Source of the DNA: Cetorhinus maximus
Taxonomy: Eukaryota
Direction of reading: 5' to 3'
Assembly: GCF_964194155.1 (NCBI RefSeq)
Contig: NC_135888.1
Span: forward strand, 1,798,001 to 1,862,000
DNA: 64,000 nt
Shown: piece after piece, positions 6,283 through 59,412 of the stretch
Layout: each line of letters begins with the position of its first letter
Position numbering within the stretch: position 1 is the stretch's first letter
Program-made: the position numbers and the translations under genes
The notes under the pieces: model-generated
The model's input: the letters and a program-made list of their open reading frames with translations, nothing else
Databases searched by the model: none
What the model was told of the DNA's origin: nothing

Positions 6283-7745
6283 CTATTTAATAGGCACATT
6301 AATAAACCTGCATGCAGTACAATTAGAAGTATTTTAATTTGTGTTTAAACATTAACTTCAACTTGTTTTGCAACCATCTCCCTACATAATTCCTGTATCC
6401 AACTATATGTTTATTCCATTCAATTCAAAATTATGATAATTCCATCTTTATTCAAAGTTAGATCAAAAAATCTGATTTTCTAGACCATTCATTATTGTCC
6501 ATTTCATTTCAGTAGCCTGTCAATCCTAGTGTTGAATAGATTTTCCATCTTATACTGGGGTGGCCAAACCACAGCTTGTGAGCCACATGTGGCTCTTTTA
6601 AAGATAGAGTGCAGTGCAATAGGCAACTGGTTGGCTACCACCCGATTTACAGCCCTGTCGTTTTTTGAAGTCCTGCCCAGAGTTTTTTTTTTTAAAAAAC
6701 TGTTCAGGAAAGAGTACAAGGCTAATTTCTAAACATAGGATAGTTGAGTCAAGGAAACAATGGCTGTTCAAAAATGGACACAGTTTCACGGAGAGAACTG
6801 GAGAGCACTGGGAGGGGTTTCCCGCCAGACGAAGGGCTGTGTGACCTGTGCCATTTTGGAGCAGCCTATCTGGCTCCCTAACCCACCTTCTCGCTGCTGA
6901 ACCTCCAACTTGCAGCCTCCATCCAGAAAAAGGAAGAAACAGCTTAACACAGAACACAGAATCTACTGTATTAGGGCACAGGTGCTCTGATTCAGATTTG
7001 TTCTTCAGTAGGTGGTTACAACTTCTCCCCATTTCGCACCCCCCCCTCTCCCCTGCCCACACCCCACTCCCGTCCTTCCCCCAAGTGTAATCGGTCCTTT
7101 TTTTAAACTTCTAGACTGATTTTCCACATTGCAAGAGAAAGGCTGCCAAAACGAGTTAAGCAGTGAGCATGTGCTAGCTCTGATGTGTCTCAGTGAAGCA
7201 GTTTTGTTTTGTCTACCTCTAGCAGTGATTAGCCCTGATAACTGAAAGTTTCATCTTAAGGGATATAAACTATTATAATAGTTTATAAGGCTTTCCCTCG
7301 CAAAAGCGTGTGCAAGAATAGTAATAAAAATATGCCTGTAAAGGTTGCCTGTGTCTTGCAGCTATCAAATGTCTAAAGATGATCATATATGGCTCCAAAG
7401 TTCCGAGTTTGGCCACCCGAGTTACACAATATAATCTTATTATTCTTTAAAAATATGTTCGAGTTCCTTTCACCAGAAATGATTCAAACATGGACCTGTA
7501 TCCAGATTAATAATTATCTTGCTTAATATCTCCTCTTTTTAAAAAGCCTTTTGTTAGCATTCTTTACTTGCCACTTATTTTAGTTCTTTAGACAATTTGT
7601 TCTGAGACATTTTCAGTTAGCATATCTTTTCCCTCATTTGGAATTACTGGATCTTAAAGAAAGTTTGCACAAAACGCAGAACTTGAATGATGAGCAGACA
7701 GTATTGCAATGGAAGCAAAAGCAACCCAGCAACCAGTGGCTGGGT

Positions 7746-8865
7746 ATAAATAAACAATATACTGCACCACCTACATACATAAATAAACAATATACTGCAC
7801 CACCTACATACATAAATAAACAATATACTGCACCACCTACATACATAAATAAACAATATACTGCACCACCTACATACATAAATAAACAATATACTGCACC
7901 ACCTACATACATAAATAAACAATATACTGCACCACCTACATACATAAATAAACAATATACTGCACCACCTACATACATAAATAAACAATATACTGCACCA
8001 CCTACATACATAAATAAACAATATACTGCACCACCTACATACATAAATAAACAATATACTGCACCACCTACATACATAAACAAACAATATACTGCACCAC
8101 CTACATACATACATAAACAATATACTGCACCACCTACATACATAAACAAACAATATACTGCACCACCTACATACATACATAAACAATATACTGCACCACC
8201 TACATACATAAATAAACAATATACTGCACCACCTACATACATAAATAAACAATATACTGCACCACCTACATACATAAATAAACAATATACTGCACCACCT
8301 ACATACATAAATAAACAATATACTGCACCACCTACATACATAAATAAACAATATACTGCACCACCTACATACATAAATAAACAATATACTGCACCACCTA
8401 CATACATAAATAAACAATATACTGCACCACCTACATACATAAATAAACAATATACTGCACCACCTACATACATAAATAAACAATATACTGCACCACCTAC
8501 ATACATAAATGAACAATATACTGCACCACCTATATACATAAATAAACAATATACTGCACCACCTATATACATAAATAAAAAATATACTGCACCACCTATA
8601 TACATAAATAAACAATATACTGCACCACCTACATACATAAATAAACAATATACTGCACCACCTACATACATAAATAAACAATATACTGCACCACCTACAT
8701 ACATAAATAAACAATATACTGCACCACCTACATACATAAATAAACAATATACTGCACCACCTACATACATAAATAAACAATATACTGCACCACCTATATA
8801 CATAAATAAACAATATACTGCACCACCTATATACATAAATAAACAATATACTGCACCACCTATAT
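7746..8865. repeat. 33-bp minisatellite, about 34 near-identical copies, intronic
   Basis: Unit ATAAATAAACAATATACTGCACCACCTACATAC with few variants. It accounts for the three ~400 aa repetitive ORFs. Confidence 0.97.
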
Positions 8866-8914
8866 CGCAATCCTTTTTTTTGAAAAACAGTAAACAGTTT
8901 CTTACTGGCTAGTC

Positions 8915-32005: not shown

Positions 32006-34499
32006 AGTCATTAATAGCCTTGCTACACTGGTGAACTTCCTACTTGCAGCAACAATCAAATCTGCACAGCCTTGTAATCTGCTGTTTTACACAACGAGAG
32101 CATCTGTTTCTTCAATGGAAACTGAGTGAAAAGTGCAGTTTTTAAAAAATTAGTTGCACTTGGTTAACAACCGCTCTGTAGTGTTGAAGAACCAAACTAA
32201 ATAAATTGCCCATTGTATTTTCAAGCATGCAGTACAGTCTTCTTGTGATGTGGTTTTATGAAATAAGAATTTTGTCGAGACAAAAGGAGTGATATTCGAC
32301 ATGGGCGGGCACACACACAGCGTGCAGTATCAGATCAGCCTCTATTCTTCCTGCTCGATTTTACTTTCCATTGAAAATAAGGAAAAAGCTTCATTTCAAA
32401 ATTGCCCAGCTCTCATTTTAAGATTATACCCCTTGATCTGGTGGGGATCATTTCTCTAGATCTGACCTGTCAAATCACTTTATCACTTTAAAGACCTTAA
32501 TTATTTTTTAACCTTCTAAACCTACAAATCACATTCATGTAACTTAACCTCATAATTTAATCCTTCCAAGCTCTGGTTGCTTCCCTTGATGCAAAAATTC
32601 TGCATTAATCCAAAATTTTAGAAATTCTACCAGGGAAAGCTGTTGGGAGATATGGTTGAAACCTATGGTTCATGATGCTTTGTATAACCCATGCAGCTGG
32701 ACTCAAGCGCAGTACAATGAGGTCCATAGCCAGACCCAGGTGCTAATCCAGCAGACCTTCTGCATGCTCTAATCCAGTTTCAGATATGAATTTGCATTGT
32801 TGCTGCACCTCAAATGCCAGAATTCCACAATCATCTTGCTTAAGATATTCATTTTTCTCAAAAGTTGGGACCTAAGCTCTTTCAGAGCATTTAAATGTAT
32901 CATGTTGTGCTCTCCACAAACAAAGCAGGTGCACCATCTGTAAGAGAAGCCAATTTCCCCCAGGTAGATCAGGAAGGACCTCAACATTTTACAATTTATA
33001 TGCGTCTAGTCTGCTAGTTTCCAGAAATGTTCAGCCAACTGCAATATACGACGATACTTTGAATTCTGTTGTAAGGTTGTTTGCTGTTTCACTAAGAGAT
33101 CTGGAGGCTTGTGTGGTTGAACATAAACCATTTATTGTTGACACACAACTGTATACATATCTCCAAGGTAAAGCCCTGTCTAGGTGCTATCTTCAGGCCG
33201 ATTCCTCTCAGGCTTCACACACAGTCCACAATCATGTGACTCTCAATGTGGACTGTCCGGCTTCCCCAGTCCTATATTAACCCTTACTAACCTAAACACC
33301 CTTATACTACACATTCCCCAAAGCCCTTACCCAAATATATTTACAATATAATATTTCCATGCTATCCCATCTACCCCCACGTCCCTGACTTTACAAATTC
33401 AGACCCTTTGGGGACTTTACGACTCTCCCAGATCTCATCCTCTTCCCATTCGGAGGGCTGTCTTTGTTGGTTCAGAGTTGACATTGGAGTACTTGGTGCT
33501 TCAAATATTCAGGTTTTAACATCTGATTAGCTTTTTTCGTTCTTTAATGTTATGCTTTTCTTTGTTGACAATCCACCTTCAATTGGATACCATGGACTTA
33601 TTCTGTTCTTTCCAAGGAATGTTCACTCCGTTCATTCATAGAGTGGACTCAGTTTACCTTTTCCATGGGTCTGCCATGTTATTTCTGGAAGATAACATTT
33701 CAAAAATGGAACATTCATTTCCATTTGTTTCATAATTTTAGCCAGATATTTGTTTCCTCTCTTATTTTCCAATTCTTTTTCAAGCAGATTAATCTTTTCA
33801 TTTAGCTCAGCAACTGCTCTGGTTCAGTTCAGTTCTCTTCAGAGTTATCTGCGGAACCCTCACACAAGCTTAACAACTTCACCTGGGCACTCTGTTCCTT
33901 TCGGAGTTTTTATTCCATGGTCACTGATGGCTCCTTAGACTCTTTCAATTCACTCATTTAGAACCTCAATCTGTTTCTTACATTTTCCTTATCTGATTTT
34001 AAAGTCTGGATTTGCTCTTCCACATTGCGCACCTTATCTTTTATGTTCTTCAGATTGGATCGAAGTTCAAGAATTTCATTTCCCTTTTCATGGCGAAATT
34101 CTAACATTTCATCAGTTTGGGTTGTTGATTCAACCAACTGTTCTAATTCATCAGCAATTCCTTTTCCTGTTTCAGGCATTTTTCACAATACTTAATGGAG
34201 ATTTATGTACTTGAAGTTCGTCCAATTCTAATTTTTCATTAGCAAACTTGTCTTCTGAATGTGAAAGTTGGTTCTCCTCACTGAACAGACTTTCCTTGGC
34301 AGAGCCTAATTCCCCTGGGCTATCCTTCAAGCTCACATTCTGTCATTTTACTTCTGCTGGTTGTTTCAGATCTTCATGCTCCTTTGTGAGAACTTCTACT
34401 TTCTCTTGCAACTGTTACACTTTTCCTTGGCATTCTAGATTCTTGATTTTCACTGCAGCTATGCCATTTTTCAACAACTGAATGGTTCTCAGTAAGGTT

Positions 34500-36630
34500 G
34501 AGGTTAAATGGGATAGATTTCAAACAGATCTAGCAACTCAAGACTGGGCATCCATGAGGTGGTGTGGACCAACAGCAGCAGCAGAATTGTACTCCAACAC
34601 AATCTGTAACCTCGTGGCCTTGGCATATATCCCACTCTACCATTACCACCAAGCCAAGGGATCAACCCTGGTTCAGTGAAGAGTGCAGGGGGGCATGCCA
34701 GGAGCAGCACCAGGCATACCCAAAAATGATGTCTCAACCCAGTGATGGATACAACTCAGGACTACCTAAGTGCCAAACAGTGTAAGCAGCAAGCAATAGA
34801 CAGAGATACAACCCACAAACAACAGATCAGATCTAAGCTCTGCAGTCCTGCCACATCCAGTCGTGAATGGTTGTGTACAATTAAACAACTCGCTGTAGGA
34901 GGAGGCTCTACAAATATCCCCATCCTCAATGATGGGGGAGCCCAGCACATCAGCATTTGTAACAACCTTCAGCCTGAAGTGTCGAGTGGATGATCCACCT
35001 CGGCCTCCTCCGGAGGTCCCCAGCATCACAGACGCCAGTCTTAAGCCAATTTGATTCACTCCGTGTGATATCAAGAAATGGTTGAAGGCACTGGATACTG
35101 CAAAGGCTATGGGCCCTGACAATATTCTGGCAATAGTACTGAAGACGTGTGCTCCAGAACTTGCCACACCCCTAGCCAAGCTGTTCCAGTACAGCTACAA
35201 CACTGGCATCTACCCGGCAATGTGGAAAATTGCCCAGGTATGTCCTGTACACAAAAAAAAGGACAAATCCAACGTGGCCAATTACCGCCCCATCAGTCAA
35301 TACTCGATCATCTGTGAAGTGATGGGAGGGGTCATCTACAGTGCTATCAAGCAGCACTTACTTAGAAAACCTGCTCACTGATGCTCAGTTTGGGTTCAGC
35401 CAGGGTCACTTAGCTCCTGACCTCATTACAGCCTTGGTTCAAACATGGACAAAAGAGCTGAACTCCCGAGGTGAGATCAGAGTGACTGTCCTTCACATCA
35501 TGACAGCATTTGATCGAGTGTGGTATCAAAGTGCCCTAGCAAAACAAGAGTCCATGGGAATCATGGAGAAATCTCTCCATTGGTTGGAGTCATACCTAGC
35601 ACAAAGGAAGATGGTTGTGGTTGTTGGAGTTCAATCATCTCAGCTCCAGGACATCACTGCAGGAGTTCCTCAGGGTAGTGTCCTTGGCCCAGCCATCTTC
35701 AGCTGCTTCATTAATGACCTTCCTTCAATTATAAGGTCAGTAGTGGGGATGTTTGCTGATGATTGGACAATGTTCAGCACCATTTGCAACTCCTCAGATA
35801 CTAAAGCAGTCCAAATGCAGCAAGACCCGGACAATATCCAGGCTTGGGCTGACAAGTGGCAAGTAACATTCACACCACACAAGTGCCAGGCAATGACCAT
35901 CTCCAACAAGGGAGAATCTAACCATCTCCCCATGACATTCAATGGCATCGTTGAATCCCCCACTATCAACATCCTGGGGGTTACCATTGACCAGAAACTG
36001 AACTGGACTAGCCAGTGGCTAAATACTGTGGCTACAAAAGCAGGTCAGAGACTAGGAATCCTGTGGCAAGTAACTCCTGACTCCCCGAAGCCTGTCCACC
36101 CTCTACAAGGCACAAGATCGGAGATCAGTTGACATGCCTGCATGAATGCAGCTCCAACAATATTCAAAAAGCTCGACACCATCCAGGACAAAGCAGCTGG
36201 CTTGATTGGCACTTCATCCACAAACATTCACTCCCTCCACCACCGACGCACAGTAGCGGCAGTGTGTACCATCTACACGATGGACAGCAGGAATTCACCA
36301 AGGCCCCTTAGACAGCACCTTTCAAACCCACAACCACTATCATCTAGAAGGACAAGGGCAGCAGATGCATGGAAACACCACCAGCTGCAAGTTCCCCTCC
36401 AAGCCACACACCACCCTGACTTGGAAATATATCGCCTTCCTTCATTGTCGTTGGGTCAAAATCCTGGAACTCCCTCCCTAACAGCACTGTAGGTGTACCT
36501 ACACCACATGGACTGCAGCAGTTGAAGAAGGCAGCTCACCACCACCTTCTCAAGGGCAATTAGGGATGGGTAATAAATGCTGGGTCTAGCAAGTGACACC
36601 CATGTCCCATGGATGAAAGAAATAAAAATT
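34500..36630 (+). mobile_element. 5'-truncated CR1/L2-group LINE nested in the LTR element
   Basis: RT motifs NYRPIS, GVPQGSVLGP and MFADD across frameshifted ORFs; A-rich 3' end. Confidence 0.9.
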
Positions 36631-36639
36631 CAGTTCTGT

Positions 36640-38400
36640 AATCATGCTACTCATGGCTTCAATATCCGCTCACAGCTTAGAAAGTTCTATGGCTTTTCCT
36701 TCCAATGCCTCCCCTTTTCCATTCAGCTGGTTCTTCAGCCTAACAATATCCACATTCATCTTCTCTTTCAATTGGGTATGCTGCAAAAGTGGTAGATAAC
36801 TCTTTTTCTGGCTGTTGAATTGGAGCTGCAAGTTTTCTACTTTAGTTGCCCCTGTACACAAGAATTCTTCATCTTTTCCTTTTCCTGCTGTAGTCTTTCC
36901 CTCTGCAGTTCGGTCTCTACATACTTCCTTATCACTTTTTCTACACGTTCATCTTTTTCACTCATAGCATTAACAAACTTGCTTTCCATTTCTTCATATA
37001 TATCTTTGGAAACATTTTTCCAAGTTTTCTTTGAAATGTCCAACCATTTTCTTCAGCTCTGCAGTCTCTTTCTTATACCTCTTGGCATCCTCCTGGAATA
37101 TTGAACACTTCTGAGTCTTCTCTGCCAACTGGTTCTTCAGTTCTTTCAGAATGGCATTAAATTCATTTTGTTTCTCTTTGCAATCTTCCACAGTAACAAA
37201 CTTTGATCTGTGGGATCCTTGTGGTATGTGAAGGTCCTTCAACAGGTTTTCCTTTTCTTTGCAAAGCTCAATTGCTTCATTTTGAGTTTTCCTGAGCACT
37301 CCCTGTGCAGGCAGGGGGGTGGGTTCCCTGAATCGGGGCTTGCGCTCTTTCGCGCATGCACACGAAAGAGCGCTGAAATCACAGAGGTGCCTCAGGGAGA
37401 TTAGTATAATTTTAAAAAATTTTCTTTTCTTTATTTAAATTTTAAGACATGTCCCCCGACATGTGACAGTGTCACATGGGCTGGGACGTGTCAATTAATT
37501 TTTATAAAAATTTTTATTCAATTTATAAACACTCCATGAAACCTCATCCCGCCCGTGGATGAGGTTCCATGAAAAATGCGAAGGCAACCGGGGCTCCTTA
37601 AGGTTGGATGGGCAGCTCAGTTTATTAGTTTAATTTGTTTTTAAATAGCCTTAAGACTCGGCTGCGCACCTGTTGAACTCAAAATCTACACGCACGCCCG
37701 ATGTCACCCCATGTCATTTTATGCCTCAGTGAGTGGACCCCACCCCCGCTCACCGAACCGAAAATTCTGGCCCAAGAATCTGCTCAGCTTTTTTTCTGCT
37801 GTTCAAGGCAGTCTTCATTTCTTCATGCTGTTGAAGAGTTATGTACGCCTTTTGCATTTGATCTTAAAGCACGATTAGCTGTTCTTTCAGCTGTTTATTT
37901 TCTTGTTGACATTTTGCCAACTCACGCTGCGTTTTGGTGCCTTGCTTTGTTGCTACTGATAGTTCCAATGCAGCTTTTTCTGAAGTAATATTCAACATCT
38001 TTCTCTGCTCATGTTTTTCCAGGGCCATGTATTGATTCTCCATAGAGTCTTTCAGGGCAGCAACTTCTTTGAGTGCCTTTCCTGCCCGGCTGTTGTGCCT
38101 GGCTGTGCTTCTGGCTGAGTTCTTCCAACTCAGTTTTGATACGAACATTTTCCTGTGGAATAACTTCATTTGCTTTTTGCAAGTTTTGTTGTTTTTGCAT
38201 TACATCAGATAACTTTCCTTCATTCACAGCCATCTGCTCACTTCACACTTCCACCTGCTTTTGCAGTTTGGGTACCGTGTTGGCATTTTCAAAAATTTTA
38301 TTTTTAAGTCTTTCAGTTGCTTCTCAGCTGTTCTTTCCTCTGTACTAAACTCTTCCTCTCATGCACTTCATTACGCTGACATGGTTTGCGACCACCTTAT
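36640..38400 (-). pseudogene. Disrupted UACA/RAI14-family-like coiled-coil coding sequence inside the LTR element
   Basis: Frameshifted fragments ENQYMALEKHEQRK and KELKNQLAEKTQKCSIFQEDAKRYKKETAELKK resemble recalled UACA segments NQYVPVKTHEEVK and KELKDQLSEQTQKYSVSEEEVKKNKQENDKLKK. More coiled-coil fragments continue at 33500-34490. Confidence 0.6.
37300..37772. mobile_element. MITE-like copy inserted into the UACA-like sequence
   Basis: Same family motifs. The flanking coiled-coil reading resumes across it (AEQIL | LRKTQNE). Confidence 0.65.
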
Positions 38401-39125
38401 GTTTTGCTTGGGCATTGTCTCCCTCGCCCTAGGGTCTCCTTGCTCTTTTGGTGTTTTATTGGGGGGTTTAAGGCACTCTCCTTAAGGTCTGCACAACACT
38501 GAGTTTAAAATACTTGTCAAAGTCTTTTAGTATCTCGCTGAATGTGGTTGAGGATTCACCTGTACCTTTCTTGTGATTACCTTGTTGGCAATTTCACCAA
38601 ATAAGTACCAGAATATGTTAATTTGCACATCCCCTGATTTTTCATTTAATCCTGATGTACTCCTGTGATCTAAACATTTTCTTCTCTGTGACGCCTAATC
38701 TTGCATCTGGTTTGGCCCTTGCATGAGCTCCAATTGGTCTGTCAGTTTTGATTTACTATCCATGGCTCTTTTTCAGAACAGGGAAGTACAGGTTTAATTT
38801 TTTTTCGATATGGTGCCGCAGTGACCTTTTCTTCTCTTCTTCCCTGTGCTTGTCAGGTTTTGGCAGGCCCCCATTGCGATCTTCCAGCCATCTTTAAAAG
38901 TTTGCAATTCTGCAGGAGACCTTTTAAACCAACAGTTTTGGATAGTGATTTGTTTCTCTAAGCTTGGGAAATCAATTTGAAGGGAATTTATTTTTGGTCT
39001 GCCTTCTGTTTAAATGTTTTTATATTCATTCAAGCTTGGCCCCCACCTGGTATGTCGTTGGCTCTGGACCCAGCTACAGCGTCCATCTACCTGCTCTGCT
39101 TAAACAAATCGGCATGCTTTGCCTG

Positions 39126-39269
39126 GAAAAACTCAGCAGGTCTGGCAGCATCATGAGGACTCGAAACGTCAACTTTGTTCTTCTCCGCCGATGCTGCCAG
39201 ACCTGCTGAGTTTTTCCAGGTATTTCTGTTTTTGTTTTGGATTTCCAGCATCTGCAGTTTTTTGTTTTT
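39126..39269 (+). mobile_element. Short Penelope-end-like insertion with ~20-bp TSD and inverted 5' segment
   Basis: TSD AAATCGG(C/T)ATGCTTTGCCTG at 39106-39125 and 39270-39289. The 5' part is the reverse complement of the internal gatgctgccagacctgctgagtttttccagg. Confidence 0.75.
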
Positions 39270-41259
39270 AAATCGGTATGCTTTGCCTGATTAGTGCCCT
39301 GATTATTTTTAAAAGGCTAGTTCAGCCTTTTAGTGAATCCTGCTCACCCTTTTTTGATCTGGCTAGGTCCTTTGACTCTGCGTTCGATCAGGTTTGGGCA
39401 ATGGAGCTCCACGTGCTCTGGTGGAGTCCTTGTCAGCTACATAATGGATTTTTCTTCTGCCCTTCAGCCTTCATGCCTGTAATGCAGCTTTTTTTACGTG
39501 ATCTCCAGCCGTGTCTTCGATTTAGTGCACTTCACTCAGGTCAGACTGAAGTTTCTTTATTTTTTCATGTCTTGGGGTTTCGAGGTCCTTCTCCCGCTGC
39601 CACCATGTTGTAAGGTTGTTTGATGTCTCCCCAAGAGGTCTGGAGGCTTGTGTGGTTGAACATAAACCATTTATTGTTAACATATAACTATATACATATC
39701 TCTAATGTATAGCCCTGCCTAGGTGCTATCTTCATACCGCCTTCCCTCAGCCTATCTCTACACAGTCTACCATCATGTGACTCTCTACATCATAATGTGG
39801 GTGGTGTGGTTTTTCCAGTTCCACAATAACCATTACAAACCCAAACACCTTCACAATACAAATTCCACTGAAATTTTGTTGCTTACATTGACTGCCTTAA
39901 ATGTGTACATATTTTACTCTGATAATTTCTCCTCGCATTTAATCTCTGCTTCTTTTTTCTACTACTGATCTCTTGGCCCTCATTATGTCTGCCTAAATTC
40001 CAACTGTTGTTGCAGGAATGACATTCCCTACAATAGAGAATGGTGCCCACGGTAAAGTGAACATTTCTCTCTCCCTGACAGGTGCAGATATAAAGCAAAA
40101 AAAAAATCCTATAGACAAATGAAATCCTTCCTGGACGTTAGTTCTTCTCTTTCATACCAGTTACCTATGAATTCATTCTATGTTTAAATTTTTATGTAGG
40201 AATTATTACTTAGAAACAGACACTTTTATTGACTTAAAATTCAACGGCTGTTCCTGTCAATATTGTAAAGCCCATAAAGCCTTTATTTGGCCTTCACACT
40301 TACTCATGTCTGATTGTATATTTGGGCTGGTGTAAGGGCGTGAGCTGTAAACAGTGAACACAGTGGTTTATTTGAGCTGTAGCACTGAATAATTTTTAAA
40401 CAAGAAAGGACACAGTAAGCGCCTTGTATTCTGAGAAATGTTATTCATAGCTTGCGTTGCGATTTTTTCCCACGTGGGTTGTGTGTTTGGTTCAATGAAT
40501 AAACCATAGTAAAAAAAATAGAAAATGCACAATGTAACCCATTTGTGAACAATCTTGAAATAGGTTACAATACTTAAATCTTTGCTCTCTCCACTACCTT
40601 TTGATTCCTTGATAGCAAAGTACAGTCAACTCTCAAACATTCTAAATGGAACCTTTTGTCTAGCTTGTTGCATCTTACAATGCTTGAGTTGAGCTACAAG
40701 ATTTAAAATTGCAACACCAATCTCCAACACTGGATGTATTTTTGGTTGCAACATCTTCTGATCTACATCATTAGACCAGATGTGCTAAGATAATAATACT
40801 AAAGTTACTTTTCCTTCCATTGAATATTGATTCCAAGTACAATAACCACCTCCAAATAAATCTCTTGCAGCTGTAAGAAGCCCAGATGTTTGTCACGTAG
40901 TACTATCAGGTAACCAGCTGGGGATGCTAAAGATCTAAACCAACTCATTCTCTATATTAAATACTTGGTGGCTTCTGTTTTTCATTTAACTTATTTATAT
41001 TTGACAAGGTATTTAGTGAAAGGGGCCTGTTATGAGCTTAAATCTTGTACAGGTATTTTATCATGAATTGCATTTGGACACTTATGCAAGCAGTCTGAGT
41101 CTCTGATGGTTAGGGGTTTAGCCAGTCTCTCTCAGCTCCAGGTTTAAAGTGATGAGGCTATTACACACAGCTACCTTCATGTTAAACACCAAAAGTGGCA
41201 GGTGATGTAAAAAGCTAAATAGACCTGCAACCAAAGGCTCTGTAACCTTACTGTATCCA

Positions 41260-43920
41260 GTTGAGAATGGTGCTAGAGAACTATGCAGTTAGCAGGGGCA
41301 GGCTCCATGATCTATGCCTCACCCTCAACTGCGATGGTACTCAGCAGGTGAGTGCAAGAGACAAGGCTCAAATGTTTGCAAATATCATTAGCCAAAAGTG
41401 TGACGTAGATGAGCCCACTCAGCACCCCCATCTCCACTTCCAATGTCTTCACCGTAATAGATGACAGTGACCACTCCACAAGTCATTTGACAGAGCAAAG
41501 GCCATGTGTCAGAATAGTATCCAGATTGGACCGGTGTACCAGAGCTGGCTAATCCCCTGGCAGAGCTGTTCCAGTACTGCTGTAACATTGGCATCCATCA
41601 GACAACATGGAAAACTGTCCAAATATGCAGTACCCACAAAAATCAGAACAAATCTAATCCCACCAATTAATGCCCTATCAGCCTACACACAAACATCAGT
41701 AAAGAGATAGCATGGTCACTGGTAGCATAATCAAGCAACACCCACTCACCAATAAACGCACACATTGGTGGAGAGAGAACTAGAATTAATGTTTCAGGCC
41801 TGTGACCTTTTATCAGAACTAGGAAAAGTTAGAAATGTACTAAGTTCTGGGCAAGTGAAATGGGGGAGGTTGGGAAGGAAAACAAAAGGAATAAACTGTG
41901 ATAGGGTGAAGGGCAGGAAAGATTAAATGAGAAAAGCTTTCACGGTGCGAGATCAAAGGGAATAGAATGCAAAGTGAAAGAAATGAGAGAGAAACAAGAG
42001 AAAAACCAGCAAAGAAACAAAGAACAAAATGGGGGCAGAGGTTATGATCTAAAATTGTTGACCTCAGTGATGAATCCAGAAGGCAGTAAAGTGCCCAGTC
42101 AAAAGCTGAGCTGCTGTTCCTTGAGCTTATGTTGAGCTTCATTGACACCATCCTTTCTTCAAATGTCACTCCTTGCTGTGGATTCATGATAACTTCTGAC
42201 CCTTCATCCCCTTACACTCCCATCCCAATGAATTTCAAGCTTGGCACAATGCTGAGCTCTCCATGCCCAATTCTTTGGCAGGATTCCTGCCCTTGGACAA
42301 TGGACCTTATTACCTGTCTCCATTGTTCACCTGGATCCGTCCATCTGGCCTCTTAACCTCTCTGGATATTTTCATTGAGAACTGTCAGCTTGGCACAGGC
42401 CATCTCAATCAGACTCCTGATTCCATCAAAGCCTTGGGTCAGGAACTTACCTGTGTCGGGCGGGCTGGGTTGGAGCAGGTGGGGCCGGGCATGGAGCCGA
42501 TCGCCGCCTGCGATTGGCTGTGCGCTGCCATTTAATGTGGGCGGGCCAATTAAGGCCCGCCCAGCGTGATGCACGGCTGGTGGCGCTCAGCACGACCTGT
42601 GGGGGTGGGGGGAGGAGGCCTGCGCTCTTTCGCACATGCACACGATAGAACACAGGATCTCCCTGAGATATGGAGCTGCTTGATTGTAAAAATTTTGGAT
42701 AAATGATCTGAAAAATTATTTAAACATGGTCCCTCATTGTGACAGTGTCACATGAGCTGGGACATGTTTGTACATCTCGCAAATGTTATTTAACTATTTT
42801 GTTAAACTTTCAGGAAACCTCACCCCGCCCGTGGATGAGGTTTCCTAAAAAATGCGGAGGCCGCTTGGGCTCTTTGCCTTCCCACCAACCTCAAGGTTGG
42901 ACGGGCAGAGCTGTTAATGAGCTTAATTAGTTTAAAAATGACCCTAGTAGGCCTTTGACAGTTCAGCGGGCACGCAGCTGCCCCCAGCACACGCCCGCCA
43001 AACAAAATATCTAAATGACGCACAATGATGTCAGGATGCACGCCCGACATCATCGCGCATCAGCATGTCGGGCCCACCCCCACCACACCATCAGCAATAT
43101 TCTGGCCTTGATATAGACACGGGTATAAGAACTGAATACCAGAGGAGAGGCAAGAAGCAGAATTTTACTAAGAATTGCGCCAAGGAGCCATTACAAAACT
43201 AAGGGAAATGAGAATCAGTGGAAAACCTAGCAATGCCTGTAAATATACACCAAGAAAGGTGATTGTAACTGTTGGAAGTCAGTCATCTCTGGCCCCAGGA
43301 CATCAGTGCAGGAAACATTCTTGGTCCAATGATCTTCAGCTGCTTCACCGATGATCTTTTGACAGTGGGAAGGTTATGTGTGTAGCTATGAACTGACAAT
43401 TCCAGAATGTTTCATTCAACTCTTCAAATAATGGTGCAGCCCCCATCAGCTTATAGCAGCATCTGGGTAATATCTAGGCTTAGGCTGATAAGTGCTGGTT
43501 AATGCTGGAACAAGAGAAAGACTAGTCATCTCTCCTTGATCATCAATGGCACAACCATTGATAAATCCCCCACTATCAGCATCGGAAGGCCCACCATTGA
43601 TTAGAAGCTGAACCAGACCAGCCACCTTAACACCAGAGTGCAGTGCCAAGAGCAGGCAAGAGCCTGGCTATGTTGTTACAAGTGGCTCACCTTTTAATCC
43701 CTCAAAGCCTACCTACAAGACTCATGTCAAGAACATTAAACTGGATGAGTGTCACCAAACTTAAAAAACTCAGCAACATCTAGGTCGGAGCAGTTTGCTT
43801 GATTAATGCCACTGAACTGAGTGTCCAAACCCTCCATCTCTGGCAAACTAGGGCTGTTAGCCGTATGATCCGTAAGATGGACTGCAGTAATTTACAAGAC
43901 TGCTTCAACAGCATCTCCAG
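41260..43920 (+). mobile_element. Old decayed LINE (same group as 34500-36630) split by Penelope and MITE-like pieces
   Basis: Degenerate matches to the 34500 element (ccagagctggctaatcccctggcagagctgttccagtac; atctaggcttaggctgataagtg). Confidence 0.6.
42437..43107. mobile_element. Non-autonomous DNA transposon / MITE-like family copy
   Basis: GC-rich with imperfect termini ggtcaggaa...attctggcc and an internal hairpin aaacctca...tgaggttt shared with 37300-37772 and 47724-48360. Confidence 0.65.
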
Positions 43921-51039: not shown

Positions 51040-51588
51040 TTAGTCAACGTCCAGATCACTATCATCACTACGAGACACCGAAGCACTCTGTATGGATGTG
51101 GGTGACACCACATCTTTCTCTGGCAGTACACCGTACTCACGCAAAAATGCCTCCAAATCCACTGCAAAAAAGTCATATCCAAGTTGGTCAGTGATGCGTA
51201 CAAAGTTGCCAATCAAATCTCCACATTTGTAGACTAGCAGAGCAGGTAAGGCATTACCAGTGAATCTTGCACTGGCTCCAATTACAGAGCTGCGGACTTT
51301 GCAGAATTTCACAACTGGATATTCTGTGGCCAGACAGATCAGACACCCATTCATGGCTTCACATCCAGGCTGGTCATCTTCATAGATGTGCACCATTATG
51401 AGAGTATTCTTTTCCTCTTTGTCGATTGTGTCTAGGAAGGCTTGTGAGCTGTCCAGTTCATAGATCTCTTCAAAACGCTTTCCACTGTACAGATGTTCCC
51501 TCATTTCCTCCATTCGCTGCTTCCTGTACTGCTCCAAAAACTCTTCATCATCCTTTTCATGTAACATGTTGCATTCTTTCATCGTCAT
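51040..51588 (-). CDS. pdcl: pdcl last coding exon (thioredoxin-like domain; total 297 aa)
   Basis: EEFLEQYRKQRMEEMR...EYPVVKFCKV...ALPALLVYKCGDLIGNFVRITDQLG...SDDSDLDVD-TAA. Candidate polyA signal at ~49676-49671. Confidence 0.97.
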   Translation of the reverse strand: MTMKECNMLHEKDDEEFLEQYRKQRMEEMREHLYSGKRFEEIYELDSSQAFLDTIDKEEKNTLIMVHIYEDDQPGCEAMNGCLICLATEYPVVKFCKVRSSVIGASARFTGNALPALLVYKCGDLIGNFVRITDQLGYDFFAVDLEAFLREYGVLPEKDVVSPTSIQSASVSRSDDSDLDVD

Positions 51589-57223: not shown

Positions 57224-59412
57224 ATTTTTTTTTTGAAAAATATACTTTATTCATAAAATATTTGGAAGAACATACCAAACCATTTCAAAATCACCATCAC
57301 AAAAGTACAATCAGGTTCAACTTTTACAACATGTATCACGAGGTGCATCAATACAATCAATGAATATTACAATCATTTGCAGACATTCATTTTGAGCTGT
57401 ACAGCCCGAAGGGCTCTAAACAGTTCCCAGCCCCTCGGTGCACTGTGGCAGAAAGGTCTTACACAGCGACCCTTCCCCAATGCGCCTTTGCGGCGGCTGC
57501 CCCAAGCTTTAGTGCGTCCCTCAGCACGTAGTCCTGGACTTTGGAATGTGCCAGTCTGCAACACTTGGTCGGGGACAACTCTTTGCACTGGAAGACCAAC
57601 AAGTTTCGGGCAGACCAAAGAGCGTCTTTCACCGAGTTGATGATCCTCCAGCTGCAGTTGATGTTTGTCTCGGTGTGTGTCCCTGGGAACAGCCCGTGGA
57701 GCACAGAGTCCTGTGTCACAGAACTGCTCAGGATGAACCTCGACAGAAACCACTGCATCTCTCTCCAGACCTTCTTTGCAAAGGCACAATCCACAAGGAG
57801 ATGAACAATGGTCTCCTCCCCACCACAGCCACCTCGAGGGCAACGTGCCGAGGGGGTGAGACTCCTGGCGTGTAGGAAGGATATGACGGGGAGGGCCTTT
57901 CTCACCACCAGCCAAGCTACGTCTTGGTGCTTGTTGGAAAGTTCTGGCGATGAGGCATTCTGCCAAATGACTTTGACAGTCTGCTCGGGGAACCATCCCA
58001 CAGGGTCCACCCTCTCCTTTTCCCGCAGGGCCTCTAAGACGTTACGTGCCGACCGCTGCCTGATGGACTTGTGGTCAATGGTGTTCCTTTGCATAAATTT
58101 TTTCACGAGGGACAGGTGGTACGGCACGGTCCAACTACTTGGAGCGTTCCGTAGCAGCATGGCCAGACCCATCCTTCGCAACACCGGGGACAGGTAGAAC
58201 CTCAGCACGTAGTGACACTTGGTGTCTGCGTACTGAGGGTCTACGCACCGCCTAATGCAGCCACTCACAAAGGTGGCCATCAGTATGAGGGCGATGTTGG
58301 GCACGTTTTTTTCCCCCTTTATCTAGAGGCTTGTACATCGCGTCCCTGCGGACACGATCCATTTTCAACTCCCAGATAAAGCGAAAGATGGCTCAGGTGA
58401 TCGCCACCATGCAGGATTGTGGAATGGGCCAGGCCTGCGCCACGTACAGCAACAGCGAGAGTGCCTCACACCTGATGACCAGGTTCTTACCCGCAATGGA
58501 GAGGCAGCGTCGCTCCCACATGCCCAGTTTCCTTTTCACCACAGACACTCGCTCCTTCCAGTTTCTAACGCATGCCCTGGTCCCTCCGAACCATATCCCC
58601 AGCACCTTCAGGCCGTTAGCCCTGACGGTGAAGGGGACAAAGGATCGGTCAGCCCAGTTCCCAAAGAACATGGCCTTGCTCTTCCCACGATTTACCTTGG
58701 CTCCCGAGGCCAGTTCGAACTGGTCGCAGATGTGGATCAGTCTGTGCACTGACAGTGGATCCGAGCAGAAGACGGCGACATCGTCCATGTACAGGGAGGC
58801 TTTGATCTGAGTGCCTCCACTGCCTGGGATCGTCACTCCTCTTATGCCCGGATCCTTCCTGATGGACTCAGCAAAGGGTTCTATGCAACACACGAAAAGA
58901 ACAGGCGAGAGAGGACAGCCCTGCCTGACTCCAGATTTAATCGGAAAGCTATCTGATTCCCACCCATTGATTGAGACTGCGCTACTGATGTTAGTGTAGA
59001 GCAGTTGGATCCAATTGCGAATTCCCTCCCCAAACCCCATTTTGGAGAGCACATCCACCATGTAGGTGTGCGATATTCTGTCAAAGGTCTTCTCCTGATC
59101 CAGGCTGATGAGGCAGGTGGTCCACCCCCCTGTCCTGCACATAGGCAATCGTATCCCTGAGCAGCGCGAGGCTGTCAGAGATCTTCCTGCCCGGCACAGT
59201 GCAGGTCTGGTCGGGGTGGATCACCAATTCCAGAGCGGATTTGACCCGATTGGCGATGACCTTGGACAGAATCTTATAGTCCATATTCAACAGTGAAATG
59301 GGTCACCGATTTCTAATTTCCTCCCTTTCCCCCTTGTGCTTGTAGATGAGGGTGATAATGCCTTTCCTCACGGATTCTGACATACTGCCGGCCAGGAGCA
59401 TACTCTTGTACA
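57224..59412 (-). mobile_element. 5'-truncated Tx1/L1-clade LINE with target-site duplication
   Basis: RT motifs GVRQGCPLSP and LYMDDV; C-terminal zinc finger CPRGGCGGEETIVHLLVDC; AATAAA plus poly(A) tail; 19-bp TSD CTGTATAGTTTTAAAAAGT at 57205-57223 and 59413-59431. Confidence 0.93.

Follow-up and report, generated by a model that had tools for sequence, protein, structure and literature searches.

The Gypsy-type long terminal repeat (LTR) element at 33067-39860 on the minus strand of a 64,000-nucleotide stretch of the Cetorhinus maximus genome (hereafter the window) is one decayed copy, with an interior lacking pol, of a family that carries pieces of three host genes (UACA, ninein and TPR) behind the start of Gag. 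The explanation toward which we lean, by a modest measure, is that this pol-less family possessed a UACA-ninein-TPR frame behind the first capsid lobe and that selection kept the frame open through a fusion protein docking its RNA to helper capsids. The parts of this explanation differ in strength. Capture of the host sequences and the later deletions almost certainly occurred by template switching in reverse transcription, with copies moved in trans. The open frame was, with good confidence, under selection while the family replicated, and that the selected thing was the fusion protein itself is an evenly balanced proposition.

Three host genes inside a pol-less LTR element

A first-pass annotation of the window had proposed that the interior of this element was replaced by a captured cellular exon encoding a UACA-like coiled coil. 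The UACA assignment stands for about 1.1 kb. A fragment of a sister copy matches shark UACA at 59% amino acid identity (E 1e-44; 8 matches among 955 candidates, all UACA), which indicates true homology and not a compositional match between coiled coils. The rest of the coiled coil belongs to two other genes, ninein at 34503-34308 and TPR at 34313-33699: the middle region of the cargo matches ray ninein (E 1e-6), and a more 3' sister fragment matches both whale shark TPR (72% amino acid identity; E 5e-30) and the Pfam TPR domain above its cut-off. At the DNA level, identity of the window copy to the large exons is 81-88% for UACA and 82% for ninein, and its identity to the joined TPR exons is 77-81%. 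The three donors are unlinked, their host loci lying on different contigs (UACA on C27, ninein on C19 and TPR on C18), and all of them encode long coiled coils with an A content of 38-43%.

The window copy spans five TPR exon junctions free of introns, and six such junctions are spanned across the family (17-75 of 104 copies per junction); TPR was therefore captured as spliced mRNA. We infer that the UACA and ninein pieces, each inside a single large exon, are also of RNA origin. Host sequence was thus captured as the first-pass annotation held, from three genes and not from one exon. The cargo is present in 20 of the 20 sister copies that were fetched first. A one-off retrocopy landing in an LTR element, or a set of compositional matches, is an account that we practically discard, since cargo and breakpoints are shared by dozens of copies and DNA identity to specific host exons reaches 77-88%. 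The features of the window copy, in the direction of its own reading, are as follows.

39861-39865, no strand: target-site duplication AATTC (right)
39606-39860, minus: 5' LTR, 255 bp, TG...CA
39594-39605, minus: primer-binding site, 12-nt match to the 3' end of tRNA-Leu
39126-39269, no strand: later short insertion in the 5' leader, with an internal inverted repeat and a flanking direct repeat of ~20 nt
38501-38763, minus: Gag start of ~88 codons from the ATG at 38763, encoding one capsid lobe (N-terminal by position); disrupted in the window copy
38219-38500, minus: Gag-UACA linker, in frame with Gag and UACA across the family
37794-38218, minus: UACA large-exon pieces, host exon frame nt 865-962 and 1234-1573, with a 282-nt in-frame deletion between them
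37296-37779, no strand: later insertion resembling a miniature inverted-repeat transposable element (MITE), with an internal hairpin
36629-37294, minus: UACA large-exon pieces, nt 1617-2036 and 2149-2414, with a 126-nt in-frame deletion between them
34505-36628, plus: nested 5'-truncated long interspersed nuclear element (LINE) with reverse transcriptase
34308-34503, minus: ninein large-exon piece, host exon frame nt 1169-1367
33699-34313, minus: TPR spliced-mRNA pieces, coding sequence nt 294-1319, with three internal deletions and five exon junctions without introns
33389-33698, minus: integrase-like C-terminal tail, ending RSGRVVKSPKGLNL-stop
33312-33319, minus: short polypurine tract abutting the 3' LTR, at the same position in L079 and L093 (relatives described below)
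33067-33311, minus: 3' LTR, 245 bp
33062-33066, no strand: target-site duplication AATTC (left)

The LTR pair, AATTC duplication, primer-binding site and polypurine tract seen in the first pass are thereby confirmed, as is the C-terminus ending in RSGRVVKSPKGLNL. The Kimura two-parameter distance between the two LTRs of the window copy is 0.198, and its target-site duplication is intact at 5 of 5 bp; at least 4 of the 5 bases are kept in 15 of the 34 copies with an LTR pair. The genomic pattern of the tRNA end has 44 matches, and the six that were scanned are all tRNA-Leu. At the LINE site, the element has lost ~160 bp, namely its 87-nt spacer and the first part of the ninein piece. The three later insertions (the LINE, 37296-37779 and ~39126-39269) are absent from an uninterrupted sister copy, and the first 20 sisters measure ~4.1-4.3 kb when uninterrupted. 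Searches returned no source for the 87-nt spacer or the Gag-UACA linker, for which Atlas matches were generic coiled coils only.

No pol core was visible in the first pass, and a Pfam scan of nine frames agrees: its reverse-transcriptase match falls in the frame of the nested LINE only. Protease, reverse transcriptase, RNase H and integrase are absent from the window element and from the first 20 sisters. These copies are thus not autonomous Ty3/Gypsy elements and form, as had been proposed, a non-autonomous family. An Rfam scan of the window gave no matches. We also observed a second copy of the hairpin-containing MITE-like repeat (37296-37779) at ~42617-42946 of the window.

Retention of the reading frame

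The junctions of the cargo keep the reading frame. Across 104 copies, 22 of the 24 modal shifts shared by at least two copies were multiples of three, joins between genes included; junction clusters in which no shift recurred in two copies stand outside this count; they comprise 45 singletons, of which 25 are in frame and many are compound. Both shared shifts that break the frame relate to in-frame junctions, one as a compound and one as a satellite. Among the joins between genes, the shared in-frame shift is carried by 64 of 75 copies at ninein-TPR and by 45 of 75 at UACA-spacer-ninein.

One alternative is that no selection took place: A/G-rich, codon-periodic coiled-coil messages would switch in frame by themselves, and the family would have spread on its LTR and primer signals alone. 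The A-rich composition of the donors fits this alternative, and codon-periodic microhomology raises the chance of an in-frame switch to 0.36-0.71 depending on its length. However, all 19 host-host junctions with measurable microhomology (exact repeats of 2-13 nt, which may be no longer than chance would give) are in frame, against 9.6 expected under a null based on microhomology length (P = 1.4e-6); the UACA-spacer-ninein join, two short deletions and two out-of-frame satellites are left out of this null. Private deletions, by comparison, are in frame in 8 of 19 cases.

The substitutions and small indels also bear on this alternative. Of the 147 differences from the host that 70% or more of the copies have in common, none is a stop, but stops make up 6.3% of private changes; scoring was limited to codons with a coverage of at least 25 copies. 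No small indel is common to 25% of copies, and 392 of 492 single-copy indels are frameshifting. These contrasts between shared and private changes assume that the reverse-transcriptase error spectrum is like that of genomic decay, from which it may differ. We attributed 52 of the 101 fixed replacements to the element lineage and 44 to the host lineage (5 unclear). We estimate that about five stops and a similar number of frameshifts would be expected on the element side, a number kept to about five because part of the fixed set is host-lineage change. The lack of any family-wide stop or small frameshift despite 52 element-lineage replacements, together with a low ratio of replacement to silent change in the Gag lobe (0.25; see below), argues against spread without selection. 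One subfamily may nevertheless have spread with a stop, as would be permitted under this alternative, which we consider improbable overall.

The frame extends upstream into Gag. By an indel-position test, 54 of 60 copies have the linker and UACA in phase with Gag; the net shift over the whole 530 nt is uninformative in this test (19/13/16), and an earlier Gag-to-UACA phase test was too noisy (19/11/24) and was superseded. Within Gag and the linker, each indel is confined to 6 or fewer of 48 copies. Gag-to-UACA frames are open in L080, L083 and L084, which bears out the in-frame fusion of Gag to the cargo proposed in the first pass, and a single open frame runs across UACA, ninein and TPR in L081 and L099. 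Downstream, the frame ends soon after TPR in most copies and not at the integrase tail. Read-through from TPR to the tail, seen in L023 and L082, was rejected as the state of the family: relative to these two copies, a +1 shift occurs in 38 of 56 and 28 of 54 copies, respectively. The pol-like tail is thus present but lies outside the fused frame in most copies. We also examined the heptad phase of 14 deletion lengths; 10 of the 14 fall at 0, 3 or 4 mod 7 against an expected proportion of ~0.5, which is too weak to count.

The linker of one copy carries an in-frame tandem expansion of 8 codons (L081, ~7861-8535, minus strand), and another copy contains an inverted duplication of the TPR piece (L065, ~268-1130).

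The capsid lobe, its relatives and the weight of the selection argument

The Gag-N-terminus-like remnant of the first-pass annotation was recovered at 38763-38501. It is homologous to the full Gag of L079 (E 5e-7) and hence to Gag capsid. Four decayed elements of the same genome, L079, L087, L093 and L094, keep a full Gag, and they share with the chimeric family a Leu-tRNA primer-site start, a similar LTR start, a similar tail and a Gag N-terminus that is ~40-45% identical in translated matches. These relatives match PNMA weakly. They differ from the chimeras by continuing into a second capsid lobe, and L093 further shows remnants of reverse transcriptase and RNase H between its gag and an integrase-like tail, with no integrase core seen.

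Homology between the chimera and full Gag stops after ~88 residues. Residues ~8-93 of a low-confidence structural model of a relative's Gag align to single capsid lobes, among them the N-lobe of Arc and the N-terminal domain of Ty3, and the top 17 of the 50 listed matches of a fold search are all capsid domains (Ty3 capsid N-terminal domain: Z 6.9, root-mean-square deviation 3.2, 72 aligned). From the end of homology and this single-lobe span of the model, the break in Gag likely falls at the boundary between the capsid lobes. A sequence search of PDB with the Gag piece returned no matches.

A single capsid lobe mounted on a rod that multimerises would be expected to poison a capsid lattice, and the endogenised Ty1 capsid restriction factor 9rxy is among the fold matches. 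The fusion could then have acted as a dominant negative against capsid assembly, limiting a helper or competitor in the manner of capsid-derived restriction factors. However, spread to at least 150 copies required helper particles, and none of the 125 copies examined, a minority of those in the genome, has a conserved intact frame, as would be expected of a domesticated Gag gene of the Arc/PNMA/Fv1 type. We judge this alternative to have only a slim chance.

We then compared replacement and silent changes between subfamilies across 125 copies. The Gag lobe shows 6 replacement and 9 silent changes between subfamilies against 762 and 284 private ones (ratio 0.25; P = 0.008). Cargo shows 20 replacement and 8 silent changes between subfamilies (ratio 0.93), and its mid-frequency class gives a ratio of 0.90. 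The frame and the capsid lobe look selected; the identity of the cargo does not. The first-pass annotation had called for a check of purifying selection, which is found on the frame and the Gag lobe and not on the residues of the cargo. The raw fixed counts relative to the host (77 replacement and 70 silent; ratio 0.38) were not used as evidence of selection on the cargo, as they include host-lineage change (44 replacements). An apparent depletion of proline among fixed replacements (0 of 87) was not significant with host-lineage changes set aside.

The main rival explanation fits these cargo residues. Long untranslated 3' regions trigger decay of messages, and a long translated frame could have shielded the RNA from nonsense-mediated decay or aided its export, the protein being a by-product; the near-neutral residues and the in-frame loss of large parts of the cargo are as this rival would have it. 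It does not account for the excess of silent changes in the Gag lobe or for a fusion point at a domain boundary. Long coiled coils, which all three donors encode, are not needed to avoid decay, and messages with the stop that is enriched after UACA in one subfamily would themselves end in a long untranslated stretch. We regard this rival as rather unlikely, although it carries more weight than any other alternative discussed here.

Several observations weigh against a fusion protein kept open by selection. The test on Gag has 15 changes to draw on, and some copies enter both of its comparisons. The near-neutral cargo residues, together with subfamilies that delete most of ninein or TPR, lend no support to a donor-specific function. 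Out-of-frame satellites of the major junctions recur in 2-8 copies, three of them sharing one 5-nt loss, and in the permuted copies L053, L063, L183 and L184, where the UACA 3' end lies upstream of UACA nt 931, the frame offsets are 1, 1, 2 and 0. Close to the end of UACA, a CpG site carries a stop in 19 of 27 copies of the window copy's subfamily and in 13 of 53 copies of another, and a late source copy may have replicated with its frame ending after UACA. On the structural side, the Gag model has a mean predicted local distance difference test score of 54, all Z values are below 8, and Foldseek with this model returned nothing at E <= 0.001. Finally, neither a complete helper nor an intact copy of the family was seen among the copies examined.

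The copies with the CpG stop are not set apart by diagnostic sites, of which they have 2 where permutation gives a mean of 1.6, and ascertainment is no clear cause. If the late source copy did carry this stop, its product would be the Gag-UACA fusion that the first-pass annotation proposed. Another stop, at UACA nt 1747, is found in 21 of 103 copies spread over the subfamilies; it arises by a transversion that perfects a short palindrome, and we attribute it to recurrent mutation, possibly at a quasi-palindrome hotspot.

For the selected fusion that we favor, the following mechanism can be outlined. Template switching onto co-packaged host mRNAs would have swapped out the second capsid lobe, the nucleocapsid and pol in a stepwise manner; such a mechanism of LTR capture of host mRNA is described in PMC5131818. 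A helper family would have supplied the enzymes, and copies would have been mobilised in trans. The fusion would enter helper lattices by its capsid lobe, with the coiled coil as a length-tolerant, self-associating rod replacing the lost second lobe and nucleocapsid. The nascent chain could then hold its own message at assembling helper capsids. Production of the fusion protein is a prediction from the reading frames of decayed copies. In its fullest form, this account states that a new protein built from three host coiled-coil genes, with a borrowed rod behind an N-terminal capsid lobe, took the place of the remaining Gag, docked a pol-less parasite on helper capsids and has been re-cut in frame in many subfamilies since before the split of lamniform and carcharhiniform sharks; we place it slightly short of an even chance.

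Family size, age and known counterparts

The family contains at least 150 copies: a protein search scored 150 of 2351 candidates and yielded 151 matches, so that 150 is a floor and the 2351 candidates are not copy numbers. The first 20 sister loci all share the interior. Subfamilies are set apart by internal deletions, some of which remove most of ninein or TPR in frame. We noted a divergent subfamily (L063, L084, L086, L089, L090 and L184) with a direct UACA-ninein join and a less-deleted TPR, of which L084, L086, L089 and L090 have no BLAST match to the LTR of the window copy.

Divergence between paired LTRs has a median of 0.18 (34 copies), and the family is therefore long dead in this genome. 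Sharks accumulate roughly 0.6-1e-9 substitutions per site per year, a rate that gives an age with an order of magnitude of 100 million years, an estimate that CpG decay inflates. The insertion in the window is not an assembly artefact, since a contig from a public run crosses the joint between flank and LTR with 0 differences. In organism B, a contig extends over this joint and differs at 5 positions in 123 nt, and the element interior is matched at ~95% by contigs from both organism B and organism C. The insertion thus likely predates the split of these organisms.

The residues of UACA place the capture itself further back. Over the captured span, host UACA is 95% identical to that of Carcharodon and 69-78% identical to that of other sharks. 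The copies are ancestral at 18 of 20 changes shared only by the host genome and Carcharodon, derived at 8 of 9 changes common to the host, catshark and carpet sharks, and derived at 2 of 3 changes common with catshark but not carpet sharks. In Scyliorhinus torazame, where the join is known from predicted proteins alone, four such proteins contain the spacer-ninein join and are 55-70% identical to the copies described here; one of them has UACA ahead in the same frame. From these residue states and the catshark join, the capture would date near or before the lamniform-carcharhiniform split. The catshark 'hypothetical proteins' P0030, P0031, P0032 and P0034 are likely fragments of the family.

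Elsewhere in the window, we observed a phosducin-family exon (51040-51588, minus strand; Pfam PF02114, E 6e-85), a remnant of a non-LTR retrotransposon with reverse transcriptase and zf-RVT (57459-59220, minus strand) and a long 24-bp tandem array open in several frames (~7650-8880). The segment 14001-15000 resembles a CpG island (GC-content of 62%), and a gene that starts there may contain the element or adjoin it.

Acutely transforming retroviruses have a defective, helper-dependent genome in which the start of Gag is fused in frame to spliced host sequence. The shark family shares with them a Gag-host fusion, a defective genome and a helper dependence that we infer here. It differs in that no envelope or catalytic cargo was seen and the residues of the cargo drift; with coiled-coil pieces only and a Gypsy-type Gag, it does not belong to this class. 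TPR also takes part in oncogenic fusions, and a rat TPR-raf fusion was one of the matches, but the shark family has no kinase.

The family presents intronless host mRNA in place of internal open reading frames, as in LTR-mediated retrocopies, and pieces of unlinked host genes in one frame that were re-retroposed, as in Bs1-like chimeras. Maize Bs1 is likewise an LTR element with pieces of three unlinked host genes in a chimeric frame (PMC5131818, PMC13317346), and switch points common to its copies indicate that it was re-retroposed after capture. Bs1 is described there as having 1-5 copies and one donor out of frame (PMC5131818), whereas the shark family is found in a vertebrate, has at least 150 copies and several deletion subfamilies, holds three coiled-coil donors in their native frame and has its join in two shark orders. 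The animal retrocopies of Tan et al. 2016 (PMC5131818) share replacement of internal open reading frames by partial mRNA, the possibility of several parental genes and further rounds as non-autonomous elements, and they show microhomology at their switch points, as the shark family may also do. They are described as young, whereas the shark family is ancient and widespread, was repeatedly remodelled in frame and kept its Gag lobe. Crocodilian endogenous retroviruses with KIT-ligand or nectin3 are also vertebrate LTR elements spreading captured host mRNA, but PMC4299795 presents them as retroviral and not Gypsy, with one donor each and at least one without loss of viral domains.

Camouflage of the element by host sequence against small-RNA silencing, with frame keeping as a secondary effect, has been proposed for plant elements (PMC13317346). 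It predicts neither the frame, nor the fusion to Gag, nor donors limited to coiled coils, and we consider it very improbable. We found no description of the family in the literature; Repbase, Dfam, subscription papers and supplements lay outside this search and may catalogue it.

The family is a vertebrate, high-copy and fully in-frame counterpart of maize Bs1. The multi-gene LTR captures of the compared papers are low-copy or young, whereas here the chimera is the successful lineage. Probable copies already appear among the hypothetical proteins of a catshark genome, and they can mislead searches for UACA, NIN and TPR. With so many junctions that arose independently and in frame, selection on the mobile element itself can be measured, and protein function and RNA surveillance become testable alternatives for why pol-less elements keep a frame. 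If selection acted on the protein, the family would represent exon shuffling serving a transposon and not its host, and it would suggest a route by which non-autonomous LTR elements gain priority at helper capsids.

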